DNA from: an uncultured Actinomycetota bacterium
GTDB taxonomy: Bacteria > Actinomycetota > Actinomycetes > Prado026
Length of the DNA: 64,000 bases
NCBI GenBank assembly: GCA_963849365.1
Contig: CAWKHA010000004.1
Location: 1,570,051 to 1,634,050, forward strand
Reading direction: 5' to 3'
A program made the position numbers and the translations under genes. Every line of letters starts with the position of its first letter. The stretch's first letter is position 1. Positions 31,450 to 56,861 of this stretch are shown here, piece by piece. Below the pieces are notes generated by a model. The model was not told where the DNA came from. It searched no databases and worked only from the letters and a program-made list of their open reading frames with translations.

Positions 31450-31466
31450 ATATCGGCTACTGATAT
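31450..31466. promoter_or_regulatory. RTATCG-N5-CGATAY box in the amino-acid dehydrogenase / SnoaL divergent region
   Basis: ATATCG gctac TGATAT. Confidence 0.65.
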
Positions 31467-31488
31467 CGTTAGCCTTCGAGGAGGACGG

Positions 31489-32088: not shown

Positions 32089-33396
32089 GTGGCCGGGGAG
32101 CAGACCAGCGGCCGAGGCGGCATCGTCGTCATCGGCGGCGGCATCGTGGGCGTCAGCACCGCGCTGCACCTGCAGCGGGCGGGTCACCAGGTGACGCTCA
32201 TCGAACGCGACTCGCCGGGATCGGGCGTATCCGGGCACAACGGCGGGGTCTTCAACGTCGGCGAGTGCATGCCGACGGGGACTCCAGGCGTGCTGCGCAG
32301 CATCCCGCGGCTGCTGGTCGATCCGAACGCGGCGCTGATCGTGCGATACCGCTACCTGCCCCAGCTCGCGCCCTGGCTGGTGCGGTTCGTTCGCTCGACC
32401 AGGTCCGAACGCGTCGAGGAGATCGCTGCGGCGATGCAGCAGCTCACCGACCGGTCCATCGACGGGTACCGCCCGCTCGTCGAGCACACTCCGGCCACGG
32501 AGCTCATGCACGAGGGTGGCATCCTGCTCGGCTACCGGACCGAGCAGATGTTCGACGCGGCTCGGTACGGTCGTGAGCTGCGCGTCCGTCACGGGGTCGA
32601 GTTCGACGTCCTCGACGACGTGGAGATCACAGCTCTCGACCCTGTCCTCGCCGGCAGGTTCGACCGGGCGATCTACCGACGACAGCCACACTTCACGGAC
32701 GACTCCCAGCGATTCGTCGAGCTGCTCGCCGACGACTTCGTCGCACGAGGCGGCCTGGTCCGCCACGCCGTCGCCCAGGGCATCGACGCGCGCAACGGCC
32801 GGGTGAAGGCAGTGGACACCACGGCCGGACGGGTGTCTGCGGACGTGGTCGTCATCGCCGCCGGTGCCTGGTCGAGGCGTCTGGTGCGCCAGCTCGGCTT
32901 CGACGTGCCGTTGGAGACCGAGCGCGGCTACGGAGTCTTCCTTCCCGACCCCGGGGTCGAGCTACGGCTGCCGGTCATCCTCGAGGACCTGCACATCGGG
33001 ATCACCCCGACCCGGGCCGGTCTGCAGCTGACCGGGATCGACGAGCTCGCCAGCGCTGACGCGCCGCCTCGGTCCGCGGTCGCCAAGCGGGTCATCCGGG
33101 CGGCGACGACGGTGTTCCCCGAGCTGCGCACCGAGGGTGCGGTGTCGTGGATGCACTGTCGTCCGTCCCTGCCCGACTCCCTGCCCGTCATCGGGGAGGT
33201 GCCCGGACACCGCAACGCGTTCATGGCCTTCGGCCACGGGCACAAGGGCCTGGGCATGGGCGGGATCACCGGCTCGCTGATCCGCCAGCTGGTCGACGGG
33301 GAGCGGCCGAGCCTGGACCTGAAGCCGTACAGCCCGCTGCGGTTCAGCAGACAAGGACGCCGGCAGGTGGCGCGAGACAGCGTCACCGTGGCGTGA
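32089..33396 (+). CDS. DadA-like FAD-dependent D-amino-acid dehydrogenase family
   Basis: IVVIGGGIVGVSTALHLQRAGHQVTLIE and AFGHGHKGLGMG. GTG 32089 follows GGAGAGGA. Confidence 0.85.
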   Translation: MAGEQTSGRGGIVVIGGGIVGVSTALHLQRAGHQVTLIERDSPGSGVSGHNGGVFNVGECMPTGTPGVLRSIPRLLVDPNAALIVRYRYLPQLAPWLVRFVRSTRSERVEEIAAAMQQLTDRSIDGYRPLVEHTPATELMHEGGILLGYRTEQMFDAARYGRELRVRHGVEFDVLDDVEITALDPVLAGRFDRAIYRRQPHFTDDSQRFVELLADDFVARGGLVRHAVAQGIDARNGRVKAVDTTAGRVSADVVVIAAGAWSRRLVRQLGFDVPLETERGYGVFLPDPGVELRLPVILEDLHIGITPTRAGLQLTGIDELASADAPPRSAVAKRVIRAATTVFPELRTEGAVSWMHCRPSLPDSLPVIGEVPGHRNAFMAFGHGHKGLGMGGITGSLIRQLVDGERPSLDLKPYSPLRFSRQGRRQVARDSVTVA

Positions 33397-40273: not shown

Positions 40274-41542
40274 GTGCTTCGCCGATCGGCCCCCGACGTC
40301 GGATCGCAGCCGGTCGCCGAACCGGTCGCCGACACTGACGGAGAGACCCCGACCTTTGAGCGGGGGTCAGCCTGGGAAGTGTTCCGAGTCGCCTTCCGCC
40401 TCGGTGTCACCTCGTTCGGCGGTCCCATCGCGCACCTGGGGTACTTCCGCACTGAGTACGTGCAACGACGGAAGTGGCTGGACGAGAAGACGTACGCAGA
40501 CCTGATCGCTCTGTCGCAGTTCCTTCCCGGTGCAGCCAGCAGCAAGCTGGGCATGTCAATTGGCATCATGCGGGCTGGCTTGCCCGGAGGTCTGGCGGCC
40601 TGGCTCGGTTTCACGATGCCGTCCGCGATCCTGCTGGCCGCTGCCGCGACCGTCCTGCGCAGTTCGAGCAGCGAGACCACCGACCTGCTGCATGGTCTCA
40701 AGGTGGTTGCCGTCGCCGTTGTCGCGCAGGCCGTGTGGGGGATGGCGAAGGCGTTCGCGCCCGATCGGGGTCGGGCCACGATTGCCCTGGCCTCGGCTGC
40801 GGCGGTGTTGTTGCTGCCGATCTCGTTCGGGCAGATCTCGGTCATCGCCACCGCCGGTCTCATCGGCTACTTCTTCCTGCGGACCGACACCGCCTCGATC
40901 GGGCCCCAACCCGATGTCCGGGTGCCGCGCTGGCTGGGCGTCGCTTCCTGGGCGGTGCTGTTCGGACTTCTGTTCGGCCTTCCGATCGCGCGAAGCCTGA
41001 TCGCCTTCCAGCCGCTGGCGATGTTCGACTCGTTCTTCCGCTCCGGTTCGCTCGTGTTCGGTGGCGGTCACGTCGTCCTGCCGCTGCTGAACGCCGAGGT
41101 GGTGCCGAACCACTGGGTCAACCAGGACCAGTTCCTGTCCGGCTACGGCTTGGCCCAAGCTGTGCCCGGCCCGTTGTTCACCTTCGCGGCCTACCTGGGC
41201 TCAGGGATGCGGCCGACGCCGAACGGCGCTGTGGGCGCCGGGATCGCCGTGTTCGCCATCTTCCTGCCGTCCATGCTGATCACGTTGGGCTCGCTGCCCT
41301 GGTGGGGCGCGCTGCGGACCCGCTTCGGCGCCCAAGCAGCTCTGCGCGGAATCAGCGCAGCCGTCGTCGGCATCCTGTTGGCCGCGCTGTACAACCCGGT
41401 CTGGACCAGCGCGGTGACCCGGCCCGTGGACTTCGTCCTCGCCATCGGCGCCTGTGCATTGCTGATGGTATGGAAGCTCCAACCCTGGATCGTCGTCCTC
41501 GTGACCGGCGCCGCCGGCGCGTTGGTGGCTTGGCTGAGCTGA
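40274..41542 (+). CDS. chrA: chromate ion transporter (CHR family, two fused halves)
   Basis: LGVTSFGGPIAHLGYFRTEYV..., SQFLPGAASS, and second-half SLVFGGGHVVLPLL...GLAQAVPGPLFTFAAYLG. GTG 40274 follows GAGGAG. Confidence 0.85.
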   Translation: MLRRSAPDVGSQPVAEPVADTDGETPTFERGSAWEVFRVAFRLGVTSFGGPIAHLGYFRTEYVQRRKWLDEKTYADLIALSQFLPGAASSKLGMSIGIMRAGLPGGLAAWLGFTMPSAILLAAAATVLRSSSSETTDLLHGLKVVAVAVVAQAVWGMAKAFAPDRGRATIALASAAAVLLLPISFGQISVIATAGLIGYFFLRTDTASIGPQPDVRVPRWLGVASWAVLFGLLFGLPIARSLIAFQPLAMFDSFFRSGSLVFGGGHVVLPLLNAEVVPNHWVNQDQFLSGYGLAQAVPGPLFTFAAYLGSGMRPTPNGAVGAGIAVFAIFLPSMLITLGSLPWWGALRTRFGAQAALRGISAAVVGILLAALYNPVWTSAVTRPVDFVLAIGACALLMVWKLQPWIVVLVTGAAGALVAWLS

Positions 41543-41554: not shown

Positions 41555-42616
41555 TCATCCACCACGCGTGAGGAGATCCCAGATGTCGCTGTCGAGGACT
41601 CGTCGCGCCACGTCCAGGTGAGTCTGACGCTCCGAGCACTCCTCGTCTCGCCACGCCCACAGACGCGTCGTGCTGCGGTGCAGCTGATGCTCCAGCGTGA
41701 AACCGAGCGCCCCGAGCACCTGATGCGCGGCGGTCGCAATCTCGCCCGCGGACCTGCCAGCGGAGGCTTTCGCCGCCGAGATGGCAAAGCCGGCGTTGTC
41801 GGTGTCACCCTGCTCCAGCGCCGCGAGCGCAGCCTGGCCGGCGATCACCATGGCGGATGTCTCGGCTGCGAGACCGGCCAGCAGGTGCTGTACCGCCTGG
41901 AACCGGTCGATGGGACGACCGAACTGTTCCCGCTCGCCCGCGTACCGGACGGCAAGGGAGAGCACCTGTTCTGCCGCCCCCGACATCGCCAGCACCCGGC
42001 CCAGGGCGTAACGGCGCGCCAAGGCAGCCACCGTGACGTCCGCGCCAGGGGAGAGGACGTCTGCCTGCGCGAGGTGGAGGCCGTCAGCCAGCACGTCGTT
42101 GCGCGGCTCGCCGGCCAGGTTGGCTCCCGGCTGCACGGCCACCGCGTCCGGTCGCAGCAGGACGATGCGCGTGCCGTCCGGCGTGGCCAACAGACCCACG
42201 ATGAGCTCGGCAACGCTGGCCCAGGGCACGCGTCGGAGCTCGCCGGTGAACACCCACCCGTTGGCCGCGGGCTCGAGCATCGCGCCCGACTCCACGGGGG
42301 CCGCGGTCAGTGGCCCGGATGGGACCGAGACGCCGGCGCACTCGAGCAGCCAGCCGGCGCCCCACATGGTCTCGACGAGGGGGGCTGCGAGGCTGGCGCG
42401 CCCCGACGCACGGATCACCGCGGCGGCCGCTCGGAGCGAGCCACCACCGCCGCCGTGGTCGATCGGGGTCGAGACCAGCGTGAAGCCGCTGTGCTCAAGC
42501 TGTTGCCAGGTCACGCGATCGAAGGCGGCGCGGTCCTTGTGACCGTCGTGAGCGTCGGACCGCGCGCAGATGCGCTCGACCTCCGCCATCAGGATCGCGG
42601 CCTCGTCTGCGCTCAT
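41555..42616 (-). CDS. acyl-CoA dehydrogenase family protein (short, partner-subunit type)
   Basis: C-terminal ACAD block YAGEREQFGRPIDRFQAVQHLLA...GALGFTLEHQLHRSTTRLWAWR, with a divergent N-terminal half. Confidence 0.75.
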   Translation of the reverse strand: MSADEAAILMAEVERICARSDAHDGHKDRAAFDRVTWQQLEHSGFTLVSTPIDHGGGGGSLRAAAAVIRASGRASLAAPLVETMWGAGWLLECAGVSVPSGPLTAAPVESGAMLEPAANGWVFTGELRRVPWASVAELIVGLLATPDGTRIVLLRPDAVAVQPGANLAGEPRNDVLADGLHLAQADVLSPGADVTVAALARRYALGRVLAMSGAAEQVLSLAVRYAGEREQFGRPIDRFQAVQHLLAGLAAETSAMVIAGQAALAALEQGDTDNAGFAISAAKASAGRSAGEIATAAHQVLGALGFTLEHQLHRSTTRLWAWRDEECSERQTHLDVARRVLDSDIWDLLTRGG

Positions 42617-42636
42617 GACGAGTCGCTCATGACGAG
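42610..42636. repeat. tandem 13/14-bp microduplication at the junction of the two acyl-CoA dehydrogenase genes
   Basis: CGCTCATGACGAG at 42610-22 and again at 42624-36. One copy carries the ATG of the downstream gene and the other the TGA of the upstream gene (minus strand). Confidence 0.7.
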
Positions 42637-43781
42637 GCCAGACCGCGCGCCACGATCCCGCGCAGGATCTCGGTCGCGCCGCCTCGCAAGGTGAATGCTG
42701 GCGAGTGCAGGACAGCCTCGGCGACCATCCGGCACAGCGGATCCTCGCTGTGCAGGTCCACAGCGCCCTGCAGGTTCAGCTGGACGACGTCGACGATCTC
42801 GCGTTCGAGCTGCGTGCCGAGGTCCTTCACCATCGCAGCCTCCACCGCGGGGGACTCGCCCTCGGCCAGTGCGCCGGCCACAGCCAGTGACATCTGGCGC
42901 AACGCCCACAGCCGGCTGACGACGCGACCCAGGCCGTCCGCGACCAGCGGATCGTCCACGCCTGCCTTGCGCAGTCGATCCGTCCACAGCATCAGGAGGG
43001 GCAACGTGCTCATCAGGCGTTCGGGGCCGCTGCGCTCGAAGGTCAGCTCCGCCGTCACCTGCTGCCAGCCGTTCCCGATCACCCCGAGCACGGCGTCGTC
43101 CGGCACGAACACGTCGTCCATGACGACCTCGTTGAAGTGCGGTTCCCCGTCGATGGCGTGGATGGGCCGGACGGTGACGCCGTCGGCGTGCATGTCGATG
43201 ATGACCTGGCTCAGTCCGGCGTGCCGGTCGCCGTCGGAGGGCGAGGTGCGCACGAGCGAGAGCATCCGGTCGGCGACCTGTGCGCCGCTCGTCCACACCT
43301 TCGAGCCCTTGACCAGCCAGCCGCCCGCCGTCGCCGTGGCACGGGTGCGGACCGACGCAAGGTCTGAGCCGGAGTCCGGCTCGCTCATCCCGATGCAGAA
43401 CAGGCATTCCGCGCGCGCCATCGCTGGCAGCAGGCTCTGCTTCTGTTCGTCGGTGCCGAAGCGCAACAGGTTCGGCCCGACTTGTCGATCGGTGATCCAG
43501 TGCGCGGCCACGGGGGCACCAGCTGCGAGCAGCTCCTCGGTCACCACGAACCTGTCCAGCGCGCTGCGCTCCTGGCCTCCGAATTGGCGGGGCCAGGTCA
43601 TGCCCAGCCAGCCACGATCGGCCAACCGTCGGCTGAACGAGCGGTCGACGCCCCCGAGCCAGTTGTCGCAGTGCGGGACGAACCCGCCGGAGGCCAGCTC
43701 GGCCGCCAGGAAGTCACGTACCTGCGCGCGCAGGTCCTCGGTCTCGGCTGGCAGCGCGACGGCGTTCAGGGTCTGGCGCAC
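42627..43781 (-). CDS. acyl-CoA dehydrogenase
   Basis: GWLGMTWPRQFGG, CIGMSEPDSGSDLASVRTRA, GSKVWTSGA and TLRGGATEILRGIVARGL. Confidence 0.85.
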   Translation of the reverse strand: MRQTLNAVALPAETEDLRAQVRDFLAAELASGGFVPHCDNWLGGVDRSFSRRLADRGWLGMTWPRQFGGQERSALDRFVVTEELLAAGAPVAAHWITDRQVGPNLLRFGTDEQKQSLLPAMARAECLFCIGMSEPDSGSDLASVRTRATATAGGWLVKGSKVWTSGAQVADRMLSLVRTSPSDGDRHAGLSQVIIDMHADGVTVRPIHAIDGEPHFNEVVMDDVFVPDDAVLGVIGNGWQQVTAELTFERSGPERLMSTLPLLMLWTDRLRKAGVDDPLVADGLGRVVSRLWALRQMSLAVAGALAEGESPAVEAAMVKDLGTQLEREIVDVVQLNLQGAVDLHSEDPLCRMVAEAVLHSPAFTLRGGATEILRGIVARGLASS

Positions 43782-43807: not shown

Positions 43808-44629
43808 TCAGGCGAAGCCGAAGTCGCGGAGGTCGTCGTTCATCTGCACCTTCCGGTCGGTGGACTCGCCACGCTTTCCCACGATGAGCGCACAGGCGAC
43901 CTGGTAGTCACCGCTAGGGAAGGTGCGCGCACGCGTGCCCGGCACCACGATGGAACCCGCCGGGACGCGCCCCTTGTAGGTCACCGGCTCCGGACCGGTC
44001 ACGTCGATGATGTGGCTGGACCCCGTCAGGCATGTCTGAGCGGCGATCACGGCGCCTTCCTCGACGATGACGCCCTCCACGATGATGGAACGCGAGCCGA
44101 TGAACGCGCCGTCCTCGATGATCACGGGGCGTGCGCCGGGCGGCTCGAGAACCCCGCCGATCCCGACGCCACCGGACAGGTGCACGTTCTTGCCGATCTG
44201 AGCGCAGCTGCCAACCGTCGCCCATGCGTCCACCAGGGTGCCGCGGTCGACGTAGGCGCCGATGTTGACGAAGCCGAGGGCGATGATGACCTCGGGCGCC
44301 ACGTACGACCCGTAGCGAACCACGGAGCCGGCGGTGATCCGGTTGCCACGAGCGAGGATGTCGCGCTTGATCGGGATCCGGTCGTGGTACTCCATCGGCC
44401 CCGCGCGCTCGACAATCATCGGCGCCACGTGGAAGTACTGCAGGATCGCCTGCTGCACCCACGTGTTGACCTGCCACTCGCCGTCGATCTTCTCAGCGAT
44501 GCGCAGCATGCCGCGGTCGAGGCAGTCGATGGTCTCCTCGATGGCCGCGCGGTGGCCAGGCGATTCACGAGCGGTGGGATCGTCCACCACCTCGTTGACC
44601 AACTTCTCCAGCTCAGCGACTTCGGACAC
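43808..44629 (-). CDS. dapD: tetrahydrodipicolinate N-succinyltransferase-type hexapeptide acyltransferase (proteobacterial short form)
   Basis: NIGAYVDRGTLVDAWATVGSCAQIGKNVHLSGGVGIGGVLEPPGARPVIIEDGAFIGSRSIIVEGVIVEEG is close to identical in pattern to E. coli DapD as I recall it. GTG 44629 follows GAAGGAG. Confidence 0.85.
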   Translation of the reverse strand: MSEVAELEKLVNEVVDDPTARESPGHRAAIEETIDCLDRGMLRIAEKIDGEWQVNTWVQQAILQYFHVAPMIVERAGPMEYHDRIPIKRDILARGNRITAGSVVRYGSYVAPEVIIALGFVNIGAYVDRGTLVDAWATVGSCAQIGKNVHLSGGVGIGGVLEPPGARPVIIEDGAFIGSRSIIVEGVIVEEGAVIAAQTCLTGSSHIIDVTGPEPVTYKGRVPAGSIVVPGTRARTFPSGDYQVACALIVGKRGESTDRKVQMNDDLRDFGFA

Positions 44630-44692
44630 GCATGAACTCCTTCGAAGTCGATCGGCCGGTCGGGCGGCGGGGCCTACAACTGACGGCATACG

Positions 44693-44709
44693 ATATCGCA
44701 TGCCGATTC
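44693..44709. promoter_or_regulatory. RTATCG-N5-CGATAY box upstream of the dapD-like gene
   Basis: ATATCG catgc CGATTC. The 16-mer GATATCGCATGCCGAT is repeated exactly at 46358. Confidence 0.6.
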
Positions 44710-44742
44710 TGATGTCGAGTCTGTCGTGCAGCCAGCCCCATG

Positions 44743-46218
44743 TCAGTAGGACAGGTACACCGTCTTGGACTCGGTGAAGAACTGGCGGGCGGCCTTGCCC
44801 AGCTCCCGGCCGCCGGACCCGCTGTCCTTCATGCCGCCGAAAGGGACCTGGAGCTCGATGCCCGACGTCCCCTGATTAATGCGGACGATGCCCGCTCGAA
44901 CCTCGGACGTGAACTGCATGGCCCGGTGCAGATCGCGGGTGAACAGGCTCGCGCTCAGCCCGTACGGAGTGTCGTTGGCCAGATGCAGGGCCTCGTCGAA
45001 GGTGTCGACCGGCAGCACCGCCACCACCGGGCCAAAGACCTCGTCCTGGGCGATGGGGTCGTTCGGCTGGACGTCGACGAACACGGTGGGCGGGACGAAG
45101 TAGCCCTCGGCCAGATCGCCGTCGGCCCGCGAACCGCCGGCAATGGCACGAGCGCCCGCCTGATGCGCGGCGGCCAGGTGCCCGAGCACGTCCTGCAGGT
45201 GTTGGGCCGAGGCCAGCGGGCCGAGGGTGGTGCGCGGATCGAGCGGGTCGCCCAGACGCCAGTCCTGCGCACGCTCACACAGGCGCTGGAGCAAGGGCTC
45301 GACCACTGACTTCTCGACGATGACCCGGCTGGTCGCGGTGCACTTCTGGCCGGATCCGCCGAACGCGGCCACGGAGATCTGCTCGGCGGCCAGGTCCAGG
45401 TCGGCATCAGCGAGCACCACGGCCGGGTTCTTACCGCCCAACTCCAGCTGCACCTTCTTGCCGCGGGTCGCGGCCTTGGCCTGCAGTGCACGGCCGACCT
45501 GCGTCGAGCCGGTGAAGGTCACGGCGTCGATGCCGGGGTTCTGCACGAGCTCGTCCCCGACCACCGAGCCCTTGCCCAGGACGAGATTCAGGACGCCGTT
45601 GGGGATGCCAGCGTCGACGAGAGCCTGGGAGAGGTGGACCGAGCTCAGCGGAACGACCTCCGCGGACTTCCAGACCACCGTGTTGCCGAACGCGAGGGCA
45701 GGCGCGAGCTTCCAGCTGGGCAGCGAGATCGGGAAGTTCCACGGTGTGATGACACTGACCACGCCCACCGGCTCGCTGCGCCGGAGCAGCAGCGTGTCGC
45801 TGTTGTGAGACGGGAAGGTCTCGCCGTCGGGGTCCAGCGTCTGCGCTGCGTAGTAGCGGAAGATCCGCGCGCCAAGGGCGACCTCGCGAAGGCTCTCGGC
45901 CTTGGTCTTGCCTTCTTCCCGGGACAGGTCGCGGGCGATGAGGTCCGCACGGGCATCCAGGATGTTGGCGGTCCGCTCGAGCAGCTCGCCGCGCGCCGGT
46001 GCCGCGGTCCGCCGCCAGCGTGTGGAAGCCTCGCCGGCGGCGTCGACAGCGGCACGGGCCAGATCGACATCCGCGAGATGCGTCAGGGCCACATGCTCCG
46101 AGGGGTCCGCCGGGTTCACGTCGGGCGATGTGGCCGGTCCGGAGTGCCAGCTTCCAGCGACGAACGAGCTCAACTCGGGAATCAGCGTCGACGACGCCGG
46201 TGTGGCCGCATCCAGCAT
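44743..46218 (-). CDS. NAD(P)-dependent aldehyde dehydrogenase
   Basis: ITPWNFPISLPSWKLAPALAFGNTVVWK, ELGGKNPAVV, and FGGSGQKCTATSR with the catalytic Cys. Confidence 0.85.
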   Translation of the reverse strand: MLDAATPASSTLIPELSSFVAGSWHSGPATSPDVNPADPSEHVALTHLADVDLARAAVDAAGEASTRWRRTAAPARGELLERTANILDARADLIARDLSREEGKTKAESLREVALGARIFRYYAAQTLDPDGETFPSHNSDTLLLRRSEPVGVVSVITPWNFPISLPSWKLAPALAFGNTVVWKSAEVVPLSSVHLSQALVDAGIPNGVLNLVLGKGSVVGDELVQNPGIDAVTFTGSTQVGRALQAKAATRGKKVQLELGGKNPAVVLADADLDLAAEQISVAAFGGSGQKCTATSRVIVEKSVVEPLLQRLCERAQDWRLGDPLDPRTTLGPLASAQHLQDVLGHLAAAHQAGARAIAGGSRADGDLAEGYFVPPTVFVDVQPNDPIAQDEVFGPVVAVLPVDTFDEALHLANDTPYGLSASLFTRDLHRAMQFTSEVRAGIVRINQGTSGIELQVPFGGMKDSGSGGRELGKAARQFFTESKTVYLSY

Positions 46219-46345
46219 GGCTAGGCACTTCCGATCTCGTAGGACTCGCCAACGCAGTCCGAAGGCGGCACGGAGCAGCCGGGAACTCGCCTCAGTTCCG
46301 TGCGAGACGGCGACCGCCTACCCATCCTCAGGACATGCGGCTATG

Positions 46346-46375
46346 GTATCAGGCCGTGATATCGCATGCCGATGG
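46346..46375. promoter_or_regulatory. two overlapping RTATCG-N5-CGATAY boxes in the aldehyde dehydrogenase / M20 peptidase divergent region
   Basis: GTATCA ggccg TGATAT (46346-62) and ATATCG catgc CGATGG (46359-75). TATGGT -10 at 46342-47. Confidence 0.65.
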
Positions 46376-47555
46376 TTGGGACGGGCCGGCAGGTGGCCTC
46401 GGCGGCCCCGCGGCCAAGGCGGTCCGGACCAGTCTGGAACGCCGGGTCGTCGAGATGACGGCGGTGCTCGGTGAGCTCGTCACCGCGGAGTCGTCGACCG
46501 ACGACCCGCAGGGACTGGCGAGGGTCGCGGAGCTGCTCGAGTCGATGCTGGCGCCCTACGGGACGATCGAGCGACGCCCGTCGGCAACCCATGGAGTGGA
46601 CCACCTTCTCCTCAACGTGCCCGGCGAGCATGCGCAGCTCCCACCCGCGGTGGTGCTGGGTCACTTCGACACCGTGTGGGCCCGCGGGACGATCGAGCAC
46701 ATTCCGTTCCGGGTCAGTGACGTCGGCGTGGTGACCGGACCGGGCTGCTTCGACATGAAGGGCGGTCTGGTCCTTCTGCTGTTCGCCCTGCGAGAGCTGG
46801 CTGCGCTCGGGGTCCGGCCGCGCCGCCCGGTGCGGATCGTGCTCAATGCCGACGAGGAGGTCGGCAGTCCCAGCTCCCGAGGACTCATTGCCGAGGCCGC
46901 GGACGGGGCCGCCGTCGCGCTCGTGCTCGAGGGCCCGCTCCCGGGCGGGACCTTGAAGACAGCGCGCAAGGGGAGCGCCAGCTACACCGTCACGATCACC
47001 GGCCGGGCCGCCCACTCCGGCATCGAGCCAGACAAGGGTGTCAGCGCTGTCCTCGAGCTGGCCCATCAGGTGCTGGCGATGGATGCGCTGAACCACCCCG
47101 ACCGCGGCACGACCGTGAACGTCGGGGTGGTCAGCGGTGGGTCCAGGGTGAACGTCGTTCCGGGGAACGCGGAGGCCAGGATCCACGTACGCAGCGTGAG
47201 CGCCGGCGAAGCCGATCGAGTCCGGGCCGCCCTGCAGGACCTGCAGCCACACCTGCCCGGCGCCAAGATCGACGTGCTCGCCGGGCTGGCGCGCGAGCCG
47301 ATGGAGCGGACGCCGCAGATCGGACAGCTGTTCGCCACGGCAGCGGCCATCGCCGCCGAGATGGGCGTCTGCGACCTGCGGGAGGGATCGACCGGCGGCG
47401 CGAGCGACGGCAATCTCGTCGCGGCGCTCGGCATCCCGACGTTGGACGGCCTCGGCCCAGAAGGGGGTGGCGCTCATGCCGATCACGAGCATGTCGTCGC
47501 CGCCAGCCTGCCACGACGGGCCGCGCTGCTCGCCGGACTGCTCTGCGAGGTCTGA
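46356..47555 (+). CDS. M20-family metallopeptidase (carboxypeptidase G2 / DapE-ArgE deacylase-like)
   Basis: GHFDTVW, DMKGG, NADEEVGS and GGAHADHEHV blocks. GTG 46356 is 8 nt after TATGGT, a leaderless candidate. ATG 46455 is an alternative start. Confidence 0.8.
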   Translation: MISHADGWDGPAGGLGGPAAKAVRTSLERRVVEMTAVLGELVTAESSTDDPQGLARVAELLESMLAPYGTIERRPSATHGVDHLLLNVPGEHAQLPPAVVLGHFDTVWARGTIEHIPFRVSDVGVVTGPGCFDMKGGLVLLLFALRELAALGVRPRRPVRIVLNADEEVGSPSSRGLIAEAADGAAVALVLEGPLPGGTLKTARKGSASYTVTITGRAAHSGIEPDKGVSAVLELAHQVLAMDALNHPDRGTTVNVGVVSGGSRVNVVPGNAEARIHVRSVSAGEADRVRAALQDLQPHLPGAKIDVLAGLAREPMERTPQIGQLFATAAAIAAEMGVCDLREGSTGGASDGNLVAALGIPTLDGLGPEGGGAHADHEHVVAASLPRRAALLAGLLCEV

Positions 47556-47563
47556 CGGCTATG

Positions 47564-47580
47564 ATGTCGGATGGCGATAT
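47564..47580. promoter_or_regulatory. RTATCG-N5-CGATAY box upstream of the 2-oxoacid dehydrogenase operon
   Basis: ATGTCG gatgg CGATAT. TATAGT -10 at 47584-89, with GTG 47598 eight nt later. Confidence 0.65.
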
Positions 47581-47597
47581 CGCTATAGTGACCCCGT

Positions 47598-48668
47598 GTG
47601 GGTGACCGACCGGAGTCCGCGAGGCGACAGATGCCAGAGCAGCTGCAGCAGATACTGACTCCCGAGGGGGTCCTGGTCGCCGAGGCGCCGGTGGACCTCG
47701 ATGGCGCGGTGCAGCTGTACCGATGGATGGTGGAAGCGCGCGTCTACGACAAGAAGGGCGTCGCGCTGCAGAAGCAGGGCAGGCTCGCGACCTACGCGCC
47801 GTTCGAGGGCCAGGAGGCCGCTCAGGTCGGCAGTGCCGCCGTTCTCCGCCCGGACGACTGGGTCGTTCCGTCGTATCGCGATCCGATCCCGATGTGGATG
47901 CAGGGCTATCCGATGGACCTGCTCTTCGCGGCGCGGCGCGGCACAGAGCTGGGAAACTCTCCGCCACCGGGGGTGAACGTCCTGCCGCCGTCGATCACCG
48001 TCGGTGGACACATGGTCCATGCCGTGGGACTCGCGTGGGCGGAGCAGCTGCGTGGCACCGGTCGAGTGGCCATGACGTACTTCGGTGACGGCGCGACCTC
48101 CGAGGGTGACTTCCACGAGGCGATGAACTTCGCCGGCGTCATGAAGGCCGGCTGTGTGTTCCTGTGCCAGAACAACGGGTGGGCGATCTCCCTGCCGTTC
48201 GAGGAGCAGAGCGGGTCTGCGACTGTCGCGGCGAAGGGGGCCGCCTACGGCATGCCCGGTGTGCGTGTGGACGGCAACGACGTCTTCGCGGTGTATCAGG
48301 CGTCCCGGCAGGCGGTCGACCTGGCTCGCGAGGGCGGCGGTCCGACCCTGATCGAGGCGGTGACCTACCGGATGGGACCGCACAGCACCGCGGACGACCC
48401 CAGCCGTTACCGCGACTCGGAGATGCTGACCGGCTGGCGCGAGCGTGATCCGCTGGAGCGCCTGCGTCGGTACCTGGCAGCGGCGGATCGATGGACGCCT
48501 CAGTGGCAGGCCGAGCTCGAGGAGCAGGGGTCGCAACGCGTCCTGGACGCGGTGTCGGCCGCCGAGCTGCTCGACCCGTTCACGCCTGGCGAGCTGTTCG
48601 ACGCGATGTTCGCCGTGCTGCCGCCGGCGCTCGCCAAGCAGCGCGCCCAGGCCGTGGAGGAGGCCTGA
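47598..48668 (+). CDS. 2-oxoacid dehydrogenase E1 component, alpha subunit (TPP-binding)
   Basis: YFGDGATSEGDFHEAMNFAGV...FLCQNNGWAIS TPP motif and YRMGPHSTADDPSRYR. Confidence 0.85.
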   Translation: MGDRPESARRQMPEQLQQILTPEGVLVAEAPVDLDGAVQLYRWMVEARVYDKKGVALQKQGRLATYAPFEGQEAAQVGSAAVLRPDDWVVPSYRDPIPMWMQGYPMDLLFAARRGTELGNSPPPGVNVLPPSITVGGHMVHAVGLAWAEQLRGTGRVAMTYFGDGATSEGDFHEAMNFAGVMKAGCVFLCQNNGWAISLPFEEQSGSATVAAKGAAYGMPGVRVDGNDVFAVYQASRQAVDLAREGGGPTLIEAVTYRMGPHSTADDPSRYRDSEMLTGWRERDPLERLRRYLAAADRWTPQWQAELEEQGSQRVLDAVSAAELLDPFTPGELFDAMFAVLPPALAKQRAQAVEEA

Positions 48669-49645
48669 TGGCCAGCCGTACCTTTGCCCAGGCTCTCAAC
48701 CTCGCGCTCGACACGGCGCTGACCCAGTACGACGACGTCGTCGTCCTGGGGGAGGACGTTGGCCGCACCGGCGGCGTCTTCCGCATCACTGACGGCCTGC
48801 GCGACCGGCACGGCCCCAACCGCGTGATCGACTCCCCGCTGGCGGAGTCGGGCATCGTGGGGGTCGGCCTGGGAATGGCGATCGCCGGCCTGCGTCCGGT
48901 GCTCGAGCTTCAGTTCATGGGGTTCTCCTATCCCGCCTTCGACCAGATCATCAGCCACGTGTCGAGAGTCCGTAACCGAAGCCGGCACCGATTCACCGCG
49001 CCGCTGGTGATCCGGATCCCCTTCGGCGGCGGCATCGGCGCGGCCGAGCACCACTCGGAGTCGGCCGAGGCGATCTATGCGCACACCCCGGGCCTGAAGG
49101 TCGTGGTGGCCTCCCGGCCGAGCGACGCGGCCAGCATGCTGCTGGCCGCGATCGAGGATCCCGACCCCGTCATCTTCCTCGAGCCCATCCGGCTGTACCG
49201 GGCGGTCAAAGAGGAGATGTCGGACACGGTCACCGCAGGTGGGCTCGGGACCGCAGCGCTGGACCGTGCCGGTGACGACATCACGCTGGTCTCCTGGGGG
49301 GCGATGATGACGGAGACGCGAAAGGCCGCCGACGCCCTCGCGGACGCCGGGATCTCGGCGGAGGTCGTCGACATGCGGAGCCTCGCCCCGATCGACATCG
49401 GCCCGCTCGCGGAATCCGTGCGCAAGACCGGTCGAGGAGTGGTCATCCACGAAGCGCCGCGCAGCGCTGGCCTCGGCGCCGAGATCATCGCTCAGCTGCA
49501 GGAGCACTGCGCTTACGACCTCGAGGCGCCGGTCGCCCGGGTGACCGGCTGGGACACGGTCTTCCCGTTGAAGATGGCCGAGCACCACTACCTGCCCAGC
49601 GTGCAACGGATCGTCGCGGCGGCCAAGGGGGTGCTCGACGCATGA
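48668..49645 (+). CDS. 2-oxoacid dehydrogenase E1 component, beta subunit
   Basis: VVVLGEDVGRTGGVFRIT, VIDSPLAESGIVG and HSESAEAIYAHTPGLKVV. ATG overlaps the alpha-subunit stop (TGATG). Confidence 0.85.
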   Translation: MASRTFAQALNLALDTALTQYDDVVVLGEDVGRTGGVFRITDGLRDRHGPNRVIDSPLAESGIVGVGLGMAIAGLRPVLELQFMGFSYPAFDQIISHVSRVRNRSRHRFTAPLVIRIPFGGGIGAAEHHSESAEAIYAHTPGLKVVVASRPSDAASMLLAAIEDPDPVIFLEPIRLYRAVKEEMSDTVTAGGLGTAALDRAGDDITLVSWGAMMTETRKAADALADAGISAEVVDMRSLAPIDIGPLAESVRKTGRGVVIHEAPRSAGLGAEIIAQLQEHCAYDLEAPVARVTGWDTVFPLKMAEHHYLPSVQRIVAAAKGVLDA

Positions 49646-50886
49646 CAGCTCGGGAGTTCCTGCTGCCGGACATCGGCGAGGGCCTGGTCGAGGCGGAGAT
49701 CGTGCACTGGCTGGTCCCGGTCGGCGGCGAGGTGAAGGTCGACGAGTCGCTGGTCGAGGTCGAGACAGCCAAAGCCGTCACCGAGATCCCGAGCCCGTTC
49801 GCGGGCACGGTGATCTACCACGGCGCGGCGGAGGGCGAGATGCTCGAGGTCGGGCGCACGCTAGTGGTCATCGGCGACCCGGCTGAGGTGTGGCCCGTTG
49901 CCACCGACGGTCGACCCACCAGCAGCGCGGACGCCCGTCCCATCGTCGGAAGCCTGGTTGAGGATCCGGTGGATCTGACGCCCGCGCCCGCGGCTGCCGG
50001 GGGGCTGGCCACGCGGTCAGCCGCCATGCCACTGGTGCGCCGGCTGGCCAAGGATCTCGGTGTGGACCTGGGCGGCATCACCGGCACCGGGCGGGACGGC
50101 CGCATCACTCGTGGCGATGTCGAGGCGGCCGCGGCCCGGACGCGGTCGGGTCAGGCGACCACTTCGCCGCAGGGGCGGCACGAGCCGCCGGCCTCGCGCG
50201 ACGGTGACGACCGACAGCCGCTGGGTCGGCTGCGGTCCAGGATCGCGGCGAACGTGAGCCGCTCCTGGGCGGAGATCCCCCAGGTGACGGCCTTCGACGA
50301 GGTCGACGCGACGCGGCTGTTGGCGGCACGGTCGGTGCTGCAGAAGCGCCTGGGCGTTCCGATGCCCATCGACGCGCTGGTCGTGGCCTCCCTGATCTCG
50401 GCACTTCGTGAGGTGCCGGTCCTGAACGCCGCCCTGGACGGTGATGAGATCGTCTACCACTCCCAGCATGACATCGGCGTTGCCGTGGACACCCCGGATG
50501 GTGTCGTAGTCGCGGTGATCGCGGACGCCGGCAACATGGGCGTGACTCAGCTGGCAGCTGAGGTGACCAGACTCAGCGAGAGCGCCAGAAGCCAGTCGCT
50601 GCGCCCGCGCGAGCTCACGGGTCAGAGCTTCACGCTGTCCAACATCGGCGCCGCGAACGGTGGCTGGGGCACACCGCTGGTGCCGTACGGCACGGTCGCG
50701 ATCCTGTCGATCGGCCGGGCGAAGGACCGCCCCATCGCTCGGGACGGTCAGCTGGCCGTTGCCCCAGTGATGCCGTTGTCGCTGTCGTTCGATCACCGTG
50801 TCGCCGACGGGGCGTCGGGTCGGCGATTCCTGACGGTCCTGATCGAGAACCTCAGCGAGCCGGCCCTGCTCCTCGCCAACGGTTGA
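49642..50886 (+). CDS. dihydrolipoamide acyltransferase E2 component
   Basis: Lipoyl domain LVEVETAKAVTEIPSPFAG, peripheral-subunit-binding segment, and catalytic DHRVADG. ATGA overlap with E1 beta. Confidence 0.85.
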   Translation: MTAREFLLPDIGEGLVEAEIVHWLVPVGGEVKVDESLVEVETAKAVTEIPSPFAGTVIYHGAAEGEMLEVGRTLVVIGDPAEVWPVATDGRPTSSADARPIVGSLVEDPVDLTPAPAAAGGLATRSAAMPLVRRLAKDLGVDLGGITGTGRDGRITRGDVEAAAARTRSGQATTSPQGRHEPPASRDGDDRQPLGRLRSRIAANVSRSWAEIPQVTAFDEVDATRLLAARSVLQKRLGVPMPIDALVVASLISALREVPVLNAALDGDEIVYHSQHDIGVAVDTPDGVVVAVIADAGNMGVTQLAAEVTRLSESARSQSLRPRELTGQSFTLSNIGAANGGWGTPLVPYGTVAILSIGRAKDRPIARDGQLAVAPVMPLSLSFDHRVADGASGRRFLTVLIENLSEPALLLANG

Positions 50887-50892: not shown

Positions 50893-51414
50893 CTAGGGCA
50901 CGAACGGCGTGCAGGCCGCCGCCACGTCGATGCAGACGGCGCGGGCCCGGATCTTCCACTGGTCACCGCGCTTGACCAGGTTGTCGCAGATCAGACCGGC
51001 GACGGTTCGGGACACTGAGCTGCTGTTGTCGAGCACTCCGTAGTGGTAGACGCACGTCCAGGCCTCGGTGAGATCGTCGGACAACCGCACGACCAGGTTG
51101 CCGAACCGGTGATGCTGATGCGGGAGGTCGCGATGCATCGCCTCGTAGTTGGCCCGGATCGCGTCGGCGCCGGACGCTTGACCGCGACTGTTGGTGAGGG
51201 CGGCGTCAGGCGTGAAGAAGGCCATGAGGCCGTCGATGTCGCCGGAGTCCCAGGTGTAGGCGTAGCGGGCCACCAGGTCGTGCAGGGCCAGCTCCTCGCT
51301 GAGGTACTGCAGACTCGGACGGCCTGGTCGAGGGCGCCGCAGCTGGGCGCGTGCCCACTCCCAGGCGGTCGAGGCGCCGACGTCCGGCGCGAACGCGCTC
51401 GTCAGGGCCGACAT
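50893..51414 (-). CDS. SnoaL-like / NTF2-fold protein (paralog 3 of 3)
   Basis: YAYTWDSGDIDGLMAFFTPDAALTNSRG...HHRFGNLVV...AWTCVYHY...GDQWKIRARAV. TAGTAT -10 (51428-23, minus strand) lies 8 nt before ATG 51414. ATG 51432 is an alternative start. Confidence 0.7.
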   Translation of the reverse strand: MSALTSAFAPDVGASTAWEWARAQLRRPRPGRPSLQYLSEELALHDLVARYAYTWDSGDIDGLMAFFTPDAALTNSRGQASGADAIRANYEAMHRDLPHQHHRFGNLVVRLSDDLTEAWTCVYHYGVLDNSSSVSRTVAGLICDNLVKRGDQWKIRARAVCIDVAAACTPFVP

Positions 51415-51438
51415 GAGGCGACATACTAACATCTAGCG

Positions 51439-51455
51439 ATATCGGTAACCGATGA
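51439..51455. promoter_or_regulatory. RTATCG-N5-CGATAY box between SnoaL 3 and the enoyl-CoA hydratase gene
   Basis: ATATCG gtaac CGATGA. TACTCT -10 (51458-63) lies 7 nt before ATG 51471. Confidence 0.6.
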
Positions 51456-51470
51456 CATACTCTGCCGCCC

Positions 51471-52235
51471 ATGACGGAGGTCGGGTACCGGGTCATCGAC
51501 CATGTGGCTGTCATTGAGCTGACCGCGCCGGAACGGCGGAATGCTCTGACGCCGTCGACAGCGCTCGCGGTCGCCAGTGCGGTGGCCGAGGCCGATCACG
51601 ACGCCGAGGTCGGAGCCATCGTCGTCCACGGAGGGCCGCACTTCTGCGCAGGCGCCGACCTCAGCACGCTCAGCGATGCGCAGACCGATCCGGCTCACCC
51701 TGACAACTACAGCGCGGTAGGCCAGATCTACGAGGCGTTCCTGCGCCTGGGCGCGGCCGAGGCGCCGACGATTGCAGCGATCCGTGGCGCGGCTGTCGGC
51801 GCCGGCCTGAACCTCGCTCTCGCGGCCGACCTGCGCATCGTCGCCAAGGACGCGCGGCTGATGTCAGGTTTCGGCAGGATCGGCGCGCACCCTGGGGGCG
51901 GTCACTTCGCCCTGCTCACCCGCGCGGCCGGGCGCGAGGCCGGCGCGGCGATGGGGCTCTTCGGCGTCGAGGTGAGCGGCGCCCGCGCTGCCGAGATCGG
52001 GTTGGCCTGGGCAGCCGTCGACGATGCCGAGACCGAGTCGGTCGCCATGGAGCACGCACGGCGAGTGGCGGCGGATCCGGAGCTGGCCCGCGCCATGGTC
52101 ACGTCGTTCCGGCAGCAGGCCGACCTCCCCGGTCTGCCGTGGGCCGTGGCCGTTCAGCTCGAGCGTGGTCCGCAGATGTGGTCGCTGCGTCGAGCAGCTG
52201 ACGTCGACTCGGCACGCAACGGGCGGGGTCACTAG
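51471..52235 (+). CDS. enoyl-CoA hydratase/isomerase (crotonase) family
   Basis: RRNALT, FCAGADL and GAAVGAGLNLALAAD oxyanion-hole blocks. Confidence 0.85.
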   Translation: MTEVGYRVIDHVAVIELTAPERRNALTPSTALAVASAVAEADHDAEVGAIVVHGGPHFCAGADLSTLSDAQTDPAHPDNYSAVGQIYEAFLRLGAAEAPTIAAIRGAAVGAGLNLALAADLRIVAKDARLMSGFGRIGAHPGGGHFALLTRAAGREAGAAMGLFGVEVSGARAAEIGLAWAAVDDAETESVAMEHARRVAADPELARAMVTSFRQQADLPGLPWAVAVQLERGPQMWSLRRAADVDSARNGRGH

Positions 52236-52271
52236 AGACGTCCGGGCGGATCCAGCCGAAGCGGGCTCATG

Positions 52272-52288
52272 GTATCAGTCAGCGATAT
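52272..52288. promoter_or_regulatory. RTATCG-N5-CGATAY box upstream of the dapB-like gene
   Basis: GTATCA gtcag CGATAT. TGcTAGCGT extended -10 (52291-99), with GTG 52306 seven nt after it. Confidence 0.65.
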
Positions 52289-52305
52289 CGTGCTAGCGTA
52301 GAAGC

Positions 52306-53124
52306 GTGACCGAGAATCGCCGAAGCAACGGTCCCGCAGCAGCGATCAGGGTTGTCGTGGCAGGGCCGAACGGGAAGATGGGCAGCGTCATGATGTCCGG
52401 GCTCCCGGAGCAGCCCGGCATTGAAGTCACCGGTGGGTTGACACGCGACGATCCGAACGCCGCGCAGCTGCTCGCAGGCGCCGATGTGCTCGTGGACTTC
52501 ACGATCGCCGAGGCCGCGATCCCCCTGATGCTCGCCGCGATCGACGCCGGCGTCCGGCCGGTGAGCGGAACGTCGGGGCTGGGCGAGCAGGCCCTGGACG
52601 AGGTCGATCGCGCGGCGCGGGCCAGGGGCCTACCGGCTGTCTGGGCATCGCAGTTCACCCCGGGCGGCGCGCTGATGATGCACTTCTGCCGGCTGGCCGC
52701 GCGCTACCTCGACGCGGCAGTCGTGACCGAGTGCCACCACGCCACAAAGGCTGACGCGCCGTCAGGAACCGCCTGGGAGCTGGCCAAGCAGATCCGGATC
52801 GCGCACGGCGCCGATCTCGTCGACTACCCGCCGCAGACCCAGCCGGTCGCGTCGGTGATGGGCGGTGACGAGGGTGGAGTGCGCATCCACAGCATGCGCC
52901 TGCCGGGAGCGCTCGGCTGGAACGAGGTGACGTTCGCGGGCCCGCATGAGACGCTCTCGATCCGGCAGACAGACGGCGACCGCGTGGGCTTTGTCCCGTT
53001 CGTCGCGCGCGCCGTTCACGAAGTCATGAACACAGATCGCGTCGGGCTCATCCGTGGGTTCGGCTCCGTCATCGGCCTGGAAGTCGAGCCAACAGACGCC
53101 ACGCCGGTCCCGGCGTCAGCATAA
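52306..53124 (+). CDS. 4-hydroxy-tetrahydrodipicolinate reductase (DapB) family imine reductase
   Basis: IRVVVAGPNGKMG and the signature ECHHATKADAPSGTA. Confidence 0.8.
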   Translation: MTENRRSNGPAAAIRVVVAGPNGKMGSVMMSGLPEQPGIEVTGGLTRDDPNAAQLLAGADVLVDFTIAEAAIPLMLAAIDAGVRPVSGTSGLGEQALDEVDRAARARGLPAVWASQFTPGGALMMHFCRLAARYLDAAVVTECHHATKADAPSGTAWELAKQIRIAHGADLVDYPPQTQPVASVMGGDEGGVRIHSMRLPGALGWNEVTFAGPHETLSIRQTDGDRVGFVPFVARAVHEVMNTDRVGLIRGFGSVIGLEVEPTDATPVPASA

Positions 53125-55809: not shown

Positions 55810-56256
55810 GTGACTGACGAGATCAGAGTCAGGACGGAAGACAACGAGCTCACGCTCGAGGAGATGTCCGCCGCCCTTCCTGACACGGCGGGAATCATGG
55901 AGAAGGTCGGCCACAGCTGGTGGCATGTCGCCTACGCCGCCCGCGGCGGCAACTGGGGCCTTGCGGAGTACTACGTCAAGCGGATGACCAAGCTGGAGAA
56001 CACCCTCAAGGTGCTCCGTCCCAAGCACCGCGAGCGCCTGGAGCGCTTCCAGGCGGAGGCGTTGCCCGCGGTCCGGGCGGCGATCGACGCGAAAGACCTG
56101 GATCGGTTCGAAGCGGCCTTCGCCGCGGCGACGGACATGGCGAATGATCTCCACGCGGAGTCGGGCTACCCGTACATCAAGTGGGTGCTGCCTGAGCAGG
56201 CGCCGCAGGGGCTGGTGCTCGATCTGGTGGCAGAGCCGAGTCCTGCCGACGCCTAG
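55810..56256 (+). CDS. conserved-looking hypothetical protein (148 aa), no family recognised
   Basis: High third-position GC, helical composition, WWHVAYAARGGNWGLAEYYVKRM. Immediately downstream of the ferredoxin gene. Confidence 0.5.
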   Translation: MTDEIRVRTEDNELTLEEMSAALPDTAGIMEKVGHSWWHVAYAARGGNWGLAEYYVKRMTKLENTLKVLRPKHRERLERFQAEALPAVRAAIDAKDLDRFEAAFAAATDMANDLHAESGYPYIKWVLPEQAPQGLVLDLVAEPSPADA

Positions 56257-56290: not shown

Positions 56291-56710
56291 TCAGCGCCGT
56301 GACGACGCTGACGCGGTGGACGAGCGTGACGGCTTCCGGCTCGAATCGCCGTCGCTGACCTCCTGGACCAGGTCGATGACCTTGGCCCTGGCCTCGTCCA
56401 ACGCTCGCTGGCCCAGCGGAGTGATTCCGTAGTACTTGCGGATCTTGCCCCCGACGACGCGGTCCTGGCGAACCAGGAACTGGGCCCCCTCCAGGTTGTG
56501 CAGCAATGGGTAGAGCGTGCCGGGCGAGAGGCGGTAGCCGTGCTTCTCGAGCTCTTCGGTGAGGCCGACGCCATAGACCGGCCCCATGCTCGCGTGATAG
56601 AGCACGTGGATCTTGACGAAACCGAGCAGGAGGTCGCGGAAGATCTTCGAGTGCTCCTCCAGTGACCTGTGGACCGCCGCCGGATCGGTCGCAGACGTGC
56701 GCGTTGCCAT
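56291..56710 (-). CDS. PadR-family transcriptional regulator
   Basis: LLGFVKIHVLYHAS...GVGLTEELEKHGYRLSPGTLYPLLHNLEGAQFL...YYGITPLG winged-helix pattern. ATG 56737 is an alternative start. Confidence 0.8.
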   Translation of the reverse strand: MATRTSATDPAAVHRSLEEHSKIFRDLLLGFVKIHVLYHASMGPVYGVGLTEELEKHGYRLSPGTLYPLLHNLEGAQFLVRQDRVVGGKIRKYYGITPLGQRALDEARAKVIDLVQEVSDGDSSRKPSRSSTASASSRR

Positions 56711-56751
56711 AGGACGGCCAACCCTTCGTCTCTTCATCGAATCGTAAACCG

Positions 56752-56768: not shown

Positions 56769-56830
56769 TAGCGGCCGACCCGGCGTTGCGTGTGCGAACG
56801 GCGCTGGCCTTGTCGTGCCGCTGGATACCG

Positions 56831-56847
56831 ATATCGACATCCGACAC
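56831..56847. promoter_or_regulatory. RTATCG-N5-CGATAY box proximal to TPP enzyme gene 2
   Basis: ATATCG acatc CGACAC. GATATCGACATCCGAC is shared with 12731. Confidence 0.55.
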
Positions 56848-56861
56848 CGTAATCCAATATC

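Follow-up and report, generated by a model that had tools for sequence, protein, structure and literature searches.

We analysed a 64,000-nucleotide stretch of contig CAWKHA010000004.1 from an uncultured Actinomycetota bacterium, referred to here as the window and numbered from its first letter. Among genes for catabolic enzymes it carries, at 43808-44629 on the minus strand, a gene for a 273-amino acid protein that resembles the short form of DapD, the tetrahydrodipicolinate (THDP) N-succinyltransferase of lysine biosynthesis. In other genomes the gene for this DapD-like protein lies next to a gene for a thiamine pyrophosphate (TPP) enzyme, an ortholog of one in the window that we call TPP2, and this conserved adjacency points to a previously undescribed route for the breakdown of a diaminopimelate (DAP) type compound. 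From sequence comparison we see the chances as evenly balanced that the DapD-like protein is a short-form THDP N-succinyltransferase which has taken on a new function, or has at least been redeployed, and serves a catabolic cassette and not lysine synthesis. That the TPP/DapD-like cassette would form the core of a dedicated DAP catabolic route, leading from THDP (C7) to 2-aminoadipate (C6) via N-succinyl intermediates, is a tentative proposal to which we give a little less than even chances. What can be observed directly is the paralogy of the gene, its clade, a conserved gene order, the kept active-site residues and a common operator-like box. An original prediction, made from the letters of the window, had placed a short DapD-type gene amid aldehyde dehydrogenase (ALDH) and M20 deacylase genes; this gene content is borne out, with corrected coordinates, and the interpretation that went with it is partly supported.

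The genes at issue lie in a window of 64-72% G+C, in which genes were called by codon-position G+C. On the minus strand the ALDH gene (44743-46218; Aldedh 529 bits) is followed by the DapD-like gene and then by two acyl-CoA dehydrogenase (ACAD) genes, one for a pimC-like large subunit (42627-43781) and one for a small or partner subunit (41555-42616), with gaps of 26 bp between the DapD-like and large ACAD genes and 10 bp between the two ACAD genes. Divergent from the ALDH gene, on the plus strand, is a gene for an M20 hydrolase similar to carboxypeptidase G2 (CPG2), which runs from 46356 (GTG) or 46335 (ATG) to 47555, and after it on the same strand come the E1alpha (47598-48668), E1beta (an open reading frame from 48491, with a probable start near 48671, to 49645) and E2 (49642-50886) genes of a 2-oxoacid dehydrogenase, which together span 47598-50886.

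Our reading draws on the company that the DapD-like gene keeps in other genomes. Its closest homologs (60-78% identical) are found in metagenomes and in Jatrophihabitans, Kribbella, Streptosporangiaceae and Acidimicrobiales assemblies. Eight foreign contexts were readable (L015, L016, L128, L129, L132, L141, L142 and one further contig), and in all eight the gene immediately upstream of the DapD-like gene encodes a TPP2 ortholog (58-72% identity); one more contig begins inside the upstream gene and was left out of this count. The reciprocal comparison, with TPP2 as the starting point, showed a DapD-like gene downstream of homologs at 64% and 56% identity but not of one at 50%. Neither dapC nor dapE was ever seen beside the TPP-linked DapD-like genes in the compared contexts. 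In the window TPP2 (56862-58556, plus strand) is 12 kb away from the DapD-like gene and stands behind the same operator-like box.

Orthologs of other window genes accompany this pair, specifically those of the large ACAD subunit in L015, L128, L132 and L141 (56-67% identity), the small ACAD subunit in L015 and L128 (48-52%), the M20 hydrolase in L128, L129, L132 and L141 (53-63%), the ALDH in L128, L132 and L141 (58-67%), the E1alpha/beta-E2 complex in L016 and L129 (59-75%), an Opp-type ABC importer in L015 and L128 (62-73%) and an Asp/Glu-racemase-like protein in L128 and L129. The original prediction had envisaged succinyl protection followed by aldehyde oxidation and desuccinylation, and the recurrence of the ALDH in three and the M20 hydrolase in four other contexts agrees with that sequence, although the decarboxylase partner had been missed. 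It had also counted a DapA-like and a DapB-like gene as pathway partners; orthologs of these, and of the enoyl-CoA hydratase of the window, occur in none of the compared contexts, and this part of the proposal falls away.

The box that TPP2 and the DapD-like gene have in common has a consensus of roughly GATATCG-N-AT-N-CCGATA, and its 16-mer is present in the window in nine copies at no more than three mismatches, against 0.42 expected. As the box matrix was built from these first nine matches, only additional sites constitute new evidence. In a scan with this matrix, boxes are found in the spacers of the DapD-like gene (two overlapping boxes that form a palindrome at 44676-44713, between the ALDH and DapD-like genes), of the M20 and ALDH genes, of E1alpha (47557-47584), of a ChrA-family gene (40204), of PadR and TPP2 (56827-56854) and of the gene for an importer's binding protein, with further boxes upstream of a molybdopterin oxidoreductase gene and of a CCG protein gene and in the spacer of the DapA-like gene (3805-3865). 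Despite the distance of 12 kb, the common box ties TPP2 to the DapD-like operon, and the presence of boxes before the DapD-like gene and several catabolic genes supports the earlier view that the DapD-like gene sits in a catabolic, co-regulated setting. The matrix scan of the window found no intergenic box ahead of the operon of the enoyl-CoA hydratase and DapB-like genes. A strict palindrome was also tried as an operator model and did not generalise (4 matches against 1.9 expected), whereas the half-site box did. Both start candidates of the M20 gene lie beside or under the box at 46352-46379. The gene for a PadR-family regulator (56291-56737, minus strand) is divergent from TPP2 and encodes a candidate regulator of the box regulon; a PadR gene is likewise a neighbour of the cassette in L016, L132, L141, L142 and the contig that begins inside the upstream gene.

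The genome from which the window comes (3.84 Mb, 97.6% complete) contains the separate canonical dapABDE set whose presence the original prediction had proposed to check. A canonical actinobacterial-type dapD is found at C4:1861739-1862641 (479 bits against a cut-off of 441), divergent from a canonical dapE (496 bits), and contig C1 has a canonical dapA (C1:621388) and dapB (C1:653210) that score above the DapA-like and DapB-like genes of the window. The dap look-alikes of the window are therefore extra copies, and the DapD-like protein shares only 23% identity with the genome's own canonical DapD. A Jatrophihabitans metagenome-assembled genome with the cassette likewise has a canonical actinobacterial-type DapD. 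The neighbours of the DapD-like gene are not those of a biosynthetic gene and comprise the ALDH, ACAD, M20 and TPP genes.

The start of the DapD-like protein is taken as the GTG at 44629, which has AAGGAG in front and gives the 273 amino acids of the existing gene call (P0001, a 100% match); an alternative ATG start (44701, 297 amino acids) falls within the operator-like palindrome. It contains a THDPS_N_2 domain (PF14805) and hexapeptide repeats (PF00132, PF14602), scores 305.6 bits against NF008808 (above the cut-off of 204) and 258.5 bits against TIGR00965 (below the cut-off of 375.4), and shares about 55% identity with short-form DapDs of solved structure over an alignment that spans residues 23-269. 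Passing the NF008808 cut-off and keeping all catalytic residues is also what would be seen if this were simply a second, redundant biosynthetic DapD that had been gained by transfer and had no catabolic role. To this explanation we give hardly any credence, because distant Actinomycetota keep the same gene order, in which the TPP decarboxylase, ALDH, ACADs and importers appear but dapC and dapE never do, because the operator-like box is held in common with catabolic genes, and because genomes of the same genus and family lack the gene and depend on the actinobacterial-type DapD.

The evolutionary origin of the DapD-like protein was addressed with an unrooted tree of 93 sequences (quick search in IQ-TREE, with SH-aLRT as the only support measure). 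The homolog scan of genome contigs returned mostly canonical Bacteroidota DapDs and supplied outgroups only, and matches from a search of a representative library, mostly fragments, were left out. The TPP-linked proteins form one clade of 24 rows with an SH-aLRT support of 96. For the DapD-like protein of L141 and for that of L142, both with the signature residues described below, the nearest relatives lie inside this clade. Rows next to the clade include Acidimicrobiia-named sequences that are about 60% identical to the DapD-like protein, and the two sister and basal rows that were checked (P0077 and P0036) come from operons of an aminotransferase (DapC), DapD and an M20 peptidase (DapE), the aminotransferases matching the DapC family TIGR03537. 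Because its neighbouring rows sit in dapC-dapD-dapE operons, the clade seems to have branched off from ordinary succinylase-branch DapD and not from a proteobacterial gene, contrary to the E. coli-type origin that had been suggested. The canonical operons beside the clade would also mean that the upstream neighbour has switched from a transaminase to a decarboxylase, both of which act on the 2-oxo group of the DapD product.

When the 24 clade rows are set against 68 rows of canonical short DapD, each column with a conservation of 95% or more in the latter turns out to be identical in all of the former. The residues retained throughout include D83, K88, R97, R105, N122, D134 (which, judged by its offset in the alignment, is Asp141 of 1KGQ), H150, E162, R180 and R268, and the conserved Arg, Asp, Asn, Glu and His of canonical DapD are thus all kept. 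In PaDapD, the Pseudomonas enzyme, two Arg positioned by an Asp bind the substrate's distal carboxylate, an Asn contacts the alpha-carboxylate and an acidic residue lies opposite the amino group, contacts that are stated to be conserved in the short-form complex (PMC3281039). The same enzyme turned down lysine, 2-aminoadipate and norleucine, while the acyclic analogue L-2-aminopimelate is accepted by DapDs (PMC3281039). Matching the residue spacing of PaDapD and the short form by hand gives only a tentative correspondence with D83, R97, R105, N122 and D134. Given the kept canonical-invariant residues and, by analogy, the PaDapD contacts, the clade probably still binds a C7 dicarboxylate.

The constant presence of a TPP decarboxylase places a 2-oxoacid decarboxylation between the DapD and ALDH steps. 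The product of canonical DapD is a 2-oxoacid that is taken by a transaminase in biosynthesis, and the decarboxylase neighbour suggests that here it would be decarboxylated instead. We infer each substrate and reaction of the following scheme, as well as the order of the M20 and 2-aminoadipate steps and the role of the ACAD pair. Diaminopimelate would be converted to L-2-amino-6-oxopimelate, in equilibrium with THDP; in the window this could be done by a DadA-like FAD dehydrogenase (DAO_c; 32089-33396, plus strand), whose 48-49% identical orthologs in L016 and L141 adjoin the cassette, acting at the D-centre of meso-DAP. The DapD-like enzyme would then trap the open chain with succinyl-CoA as N-succinyl-2-amino-6-oxopimelate, a 2-oxoacid, which TPP2 would decarboxylate to N-succinyl-2-aminoadipate semialdehyde and the ALDH would oxidise to N-succinyl-2-aminoadipate. 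The CPG2-like M20 hydrolase would release 2-aminoadipate and succinate, and 2-aminoadipate would pass by way of 2-oxoadipate to the E1alpha/beta-E2 complex, giving glutaryl-CoA, and then to the paired ACADs and the enoyl-CoA hydratase. L132 and L141 have an NDP-forming acyl-CoA synthetase, which could stand in place of E1alpha/beta-E2, and the pimCD-like ACAD pair would follow either way. As an alternative order, the ACAD pair may act on a still-succinylated CoA ester, in which case the M20 hydrolase would come last.

TPP2 has the three TPP-enzyme domains and resembles benzoylformate decarboxylase (347.6 bits against NF005485, cut-off 493), and benzoylformate decarboxylases are also its nearest solved structures (about 230 bits). 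For the ALDH the best NCBIfam match is alpha-ketoglutaric semialdehyde dehydrogenase, at 537 bits and under the cut-off of 770. The M20 hydrolase, which had been described as DapE/CPG2-like, is the latter and not the former: it falls far below the DapE families (TIGR01900 53-54 bits against 304; TIGR01246 37 against 362) and is only 28% identical to DapE of the canonical operons, and its best matches are PRK07338, named 'hydrolase' (259 against 357), and carboxypeptidase G2, its nearest solved relative. No signal peptide is evident in its sequence. Carboxypeptidase G2 cleaves N-acyl acidic alpha-amino acids, and for this reason a CPG2-like M20 hydrolase would fit N-succinyl-2-aminoadipate.

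Two of the foreign contexts bear on the first step. L141 has a DapL-like aminotransferase in one operon with an ALDH, divergent from the TPP and DapD-like genes (TIGR03540 508 bits against 593; NF006756 505 against 507), and L142 has another near the cassette (TIGR03540 516 against 593; NF006756 509 against 507), whereas both score only 255 and 263 bits against DapC. DapL interconverts LL-DAP and THDP. In some relatives, then, such an enzyme could run in reverse from LL-DAP and feed THDP to the DapD-like enzyme, and its presence makes DAP or THDP the more likely substrate. Class-I aminotransferases beside the cassette could also be accommodated in a variant closer to the arginine succinyltransferase (AST) pathway, with which it would share its logic, where the amino acid succinylated by the DapD-like enzyme is itself acyclic, for example DAP in its LL or meso form or 2-aminopimelate (the L form of which is known to be taken by DapDs; PMC3281039), and a transaminase or dehydrogenase then yields the N-succinyl 2-oxoacid for TPP2. 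We find this variant very unlikely, as the aminotransferases are far more similar to DapL, which acts on free DAP and THDP, than to DapC, and as the window genome has no such aminotransferase.

Several observations weigh against a route from DAP. A homolog search found no DapL-like gene in the window genome. The clade has the substitutions K84R, Y120F, N198Q and P206H fixed at otherwise conserved positions, K59Q in most members and S152A in 21 of 24, the window protein retaining Ser at the last position and carrying Q59, R84, F120, Q198 and H206 as signature residues; these changes could point to an altered substrate or acyl donor. The assignment of R97 and R105 as distal-carboxylate binders is by analogy with PaDapD. 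Early desuccinylation would leave the tight operon of the DapD-like and two ACAD genes unexplained, and the 2-oxoadipate dehydrogenases known to us are not E1alpha/beta-type complexes. Several contexts have imino-acid genes near the cassette, namely those for Ldh_2 of the DpkA family of imino-acid reductases (L016, L132, L142 and the eighth readable contig), an OCD/mu-crystallin protein and AcnX. Lastly, FhuF (6 contexts), MmgE/PrpD (5 contexts) and CCG proteins recur nearby and have no role in our model.

The imino-acid genes and the clade-specific substitutions are what would be expected if the same cassette logic were applied to a monocarboxylic cyclic imino acid, delta1-piperideine-2-carboxylate or delta1-pyrroline-2-carboxylate. 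It would arise from D-lysine, D-ornithine, proline or hydroxyproline through the oxidases of the island and be opened to an omega-succinylamino-2-oxoacid, with N-succinyl-5-aminovalerate or N-succinyl-GABA as the products after decarboxylation and oxidation. This is essentially the original prediction with a decarboxylase added. AcnX belongs to the cis-3-hydroxyproline dehydratase family and is found with racemases in L142; the window has several DAO oxidases and an OCD/mu-crystallin protein that matches the reductase of pyrroline- and piperideine-2-carboxylate weakly (140 bits against 322), and a parallel ketoarginine-type pair of an arginase-family protein and an AruI-like TPP enzyme lies in the same island. 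We nevertheless consider such a substrate rather unlikely. The Arg, Asp and Asn that are invariant in canonical DapD are kept across the clade, PaDapD does not accept lysine, 2-aminoadipate or norleucine (PMC3281039), the succinylated nitrogen would be an omega-amide with no alpha-carboxylate and hence an odd substrate for a CPG2-like M20 hydrolase, and the DapL-like aminotransferases of L141 and L142 point to DAP or THDP. The balance is in favour of THDP or 2-amino-6-oxopimelate.

The recurrent FhuF, MmgE/PrpD and CCG genes, together with a molybdopterin oxidoreductase, ChrA, importers with family-5 binding proteins and two DapB-family paralogs in or beside the island, could instead indicate that the cassette degrades a chelator, opine or aminopolycarboxylate brought in from outside, dipicolinate with its ring reduced being one possibility, and that the DapD-like enzyme has an amine or imine substrate different from THDP. 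We regard this as distinctly unlikely. FhuF, MmgE/PrpD and Ldh_2 are all missing from the window genome, from which it follows that the cassette does not need them; the DapB-like genes are not conserved partners; and the known dipicolinate pathway opens with a monooxygenase and does not use DapD (PMC11472048). The dip cluster for dipicolinate was also considered as a relative of the cassette and contains no DapD (PMC11472048), and work on homarine (PMC13236597) proved to be unrelated to it.

Other genes of the island can be described more briefly. To the right of E2 lie genes for a SnoaL-like protein (50893-51432), the enoyl-CoA hydratase, the DapB-family paralog (52306-53124, plus strand; TIGR00036 135 bits against a cut-off of 122), a quinone oxidoreductase, a ferredoxin reductase and a ferredoxin, then for a 148-amino acid protein, PadR, TPP2 and the Opp-type ABC importer. 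The 148-amino acid protein (55810-56256, plus strand) has no Pfam or NCBIfam match and is conserved, with 68-72% identical orthologs of 148-158 amino acids in L129 (5826-6302, directly upstream of the TPP gene) and L132 (1060-1536). The importer (58806-64000, plus strand) comprises permeases (58806-60993), fused ATPases (60968-63226) and a family-5 binding protein from 63331, whose 698 amino acids extend beyond the window end and for which a search for solved relatives gave uninformative nearest matches. The ChrA-family transporter gene (40274-41542, plus strand) has a 67% identical ortholog in L016 and is a recurrent neighbour of the cassette, being found in three further contexts. Far to the left is the DapA-family paralog (4362-5249, plus strand; TIGR00674 208 bits against a cut-off of 206). 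A Metallophos_2 phosphoesterase gene (16415-17070) has a 67% identical ortholog by the PadR gene beside the cassette in L132 (327-1022), and its place in the island is for this reason probably not accidental.

At 20585-23367 an arginase/agmatinase-family gene is followed by that of a second TPP enzyme (TPP1), which best matches 5-guanidino-2-oxopentanoate decarboxylase (462 bits against 500); by sequence this pair looks like a ketoarginine-type route that would be parallel in logic to the DapD-like protein and TPP2. A gene for a Glu/Leu/Phe/Val-type dehydrogenase divergent from a SnoaL-like gene occurs twice (window 30256-32073; L134:15028-17757), the L134 pair preceding a second DapB-family paralog that is 56% identical to the one in the window; the SnoaL-like gene after E2 is a third of its kind and lies near the DapB-like gene (region 50893-53124). 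In L142, a 4.39-Mb genome with the most divergent cassette, the region 1-4058 belongs to a group of AcnX large and small subunit genes, two Ldh_2 genes and two Asp/Glu-racemase-like genes within 9 kb, which resembles a 3-hydroxyproline or imino-acid module. Just right of the window is a LysA-family (diaminopimelate decarboxylase) gene (L135:3598-4983, C4:1637654-1638859; 362 bits against 298), one of three lysA-family genes in the genome, which is divergent from a class-III transaminase gene (PRK07046, 653 bits) and directly follows the importer and an MFS gene; this flanking paralog we count in favour of DAP as the substrate.

The distribution of the cassette and island is patchy. Short DapD was found in none of 11 same-family genomes searched (2 of the same genus included), the family using the actinobacterial-type DapD, and the island DNA is absent, save for paralog-level matches, from two same-genus and two same-family genomes. 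A sample of 400 genomes of the phylum, with only three candidates scored per genome, yielded no further TPP2 ortholog, and 400 genomes of the class yielded no close DapD-like ortholog. Short DapD homologs 42-56% identical to the query are present in 108 of 401 sampled same-class genomes (L099-L127), a tally that, like the class-wide search for close orthologs, includes the unpublished genomes G029, G031 and G042, on which no other result draws, and 12 such same-class rows form a separate long-branched clade on the tree.

DAP is the signature amino acid of peptidoglycan and much of it is released from dead bacterial cell walls, and the only route for its use that we know of is decarboxylation to lysine. 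Our literature searches found no catabolic DapD, no N-succinyl-2-aminoadipate and no DAP degradation route of this kind. Should the proposed route be correct, a biosynthetic enzyme would have been re-used for breakdown, TPP2 would represent a new activity, N-succinyl-2-amino-6-oxopimelate decarboxylase, and N-succinyl-2-aminoadipate would be a new metabolite; the recycling of necromass by soil Actinomycetota would also become testable. The DapD-like copies of the cassette are currently all named as ordinary DapD, and a simple annotation rule would follow, by which a short DapD with R84, F120, Q198 and H206 beside a TPP enzyme is not a lysine-pathway gene.

Among known systems, the short E. coli-type DapD (PDB 1KGQ, 3BXY, 3GOS, 9O8N) is alike in its THDPS_N_2 domain and left-handed beta-helix, in an identity of about 55% and in the invariant residues. 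The cassette protein differs in being a second copy beside an actinobacterial-type DapD, in adjoining a TPP decarboxylase (in each readable context) and never dapC or dapE, and in the four fixed substitutions of its clade, and the window protein is under the TIGR00965 cut-off. In the AST pathway succinyl-CoA is used to protect the nitrogen, an ALDH oxidises a semialdehyde and the succinyl group is then removed, and the cassette is alike in this logic only: it has a hexapeptide-repeat DapD homolog instead of AstA and an M20 hydrolase instead of AstE, a TPP-dependent decarboxylation is inserted, and its ALDH is nearest to ketoglutarate-semialdehyde dehydrogenases, with AstD absent from the 25 matches listed for it; the AstA, AstD and AstE families are not among the matches listed for the cluster proteins. 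With the ketoarginine route (AruI, KauB, GbuA) it shares the TPP-dependent decarboxylation of the 2-oxoacid of a basic amino acid followed by an ALDH, but in the cassette N-succinylation would come first, presumably to keep the 2-oxoacid from cyclising, and TPP2 is benzoylformate-decarboxylase-like and not AruI-like. The dapC-dapD-dapE operon of the Acidimicrobiia type has the closest canonical DapD (about 60% identity) and likewise encodes an M20 enzyme nearby; in the cassette that enzyme is CPG2-like, any aminotransferase present is DapL-like, and a decarboxylase replaces the transaminase.

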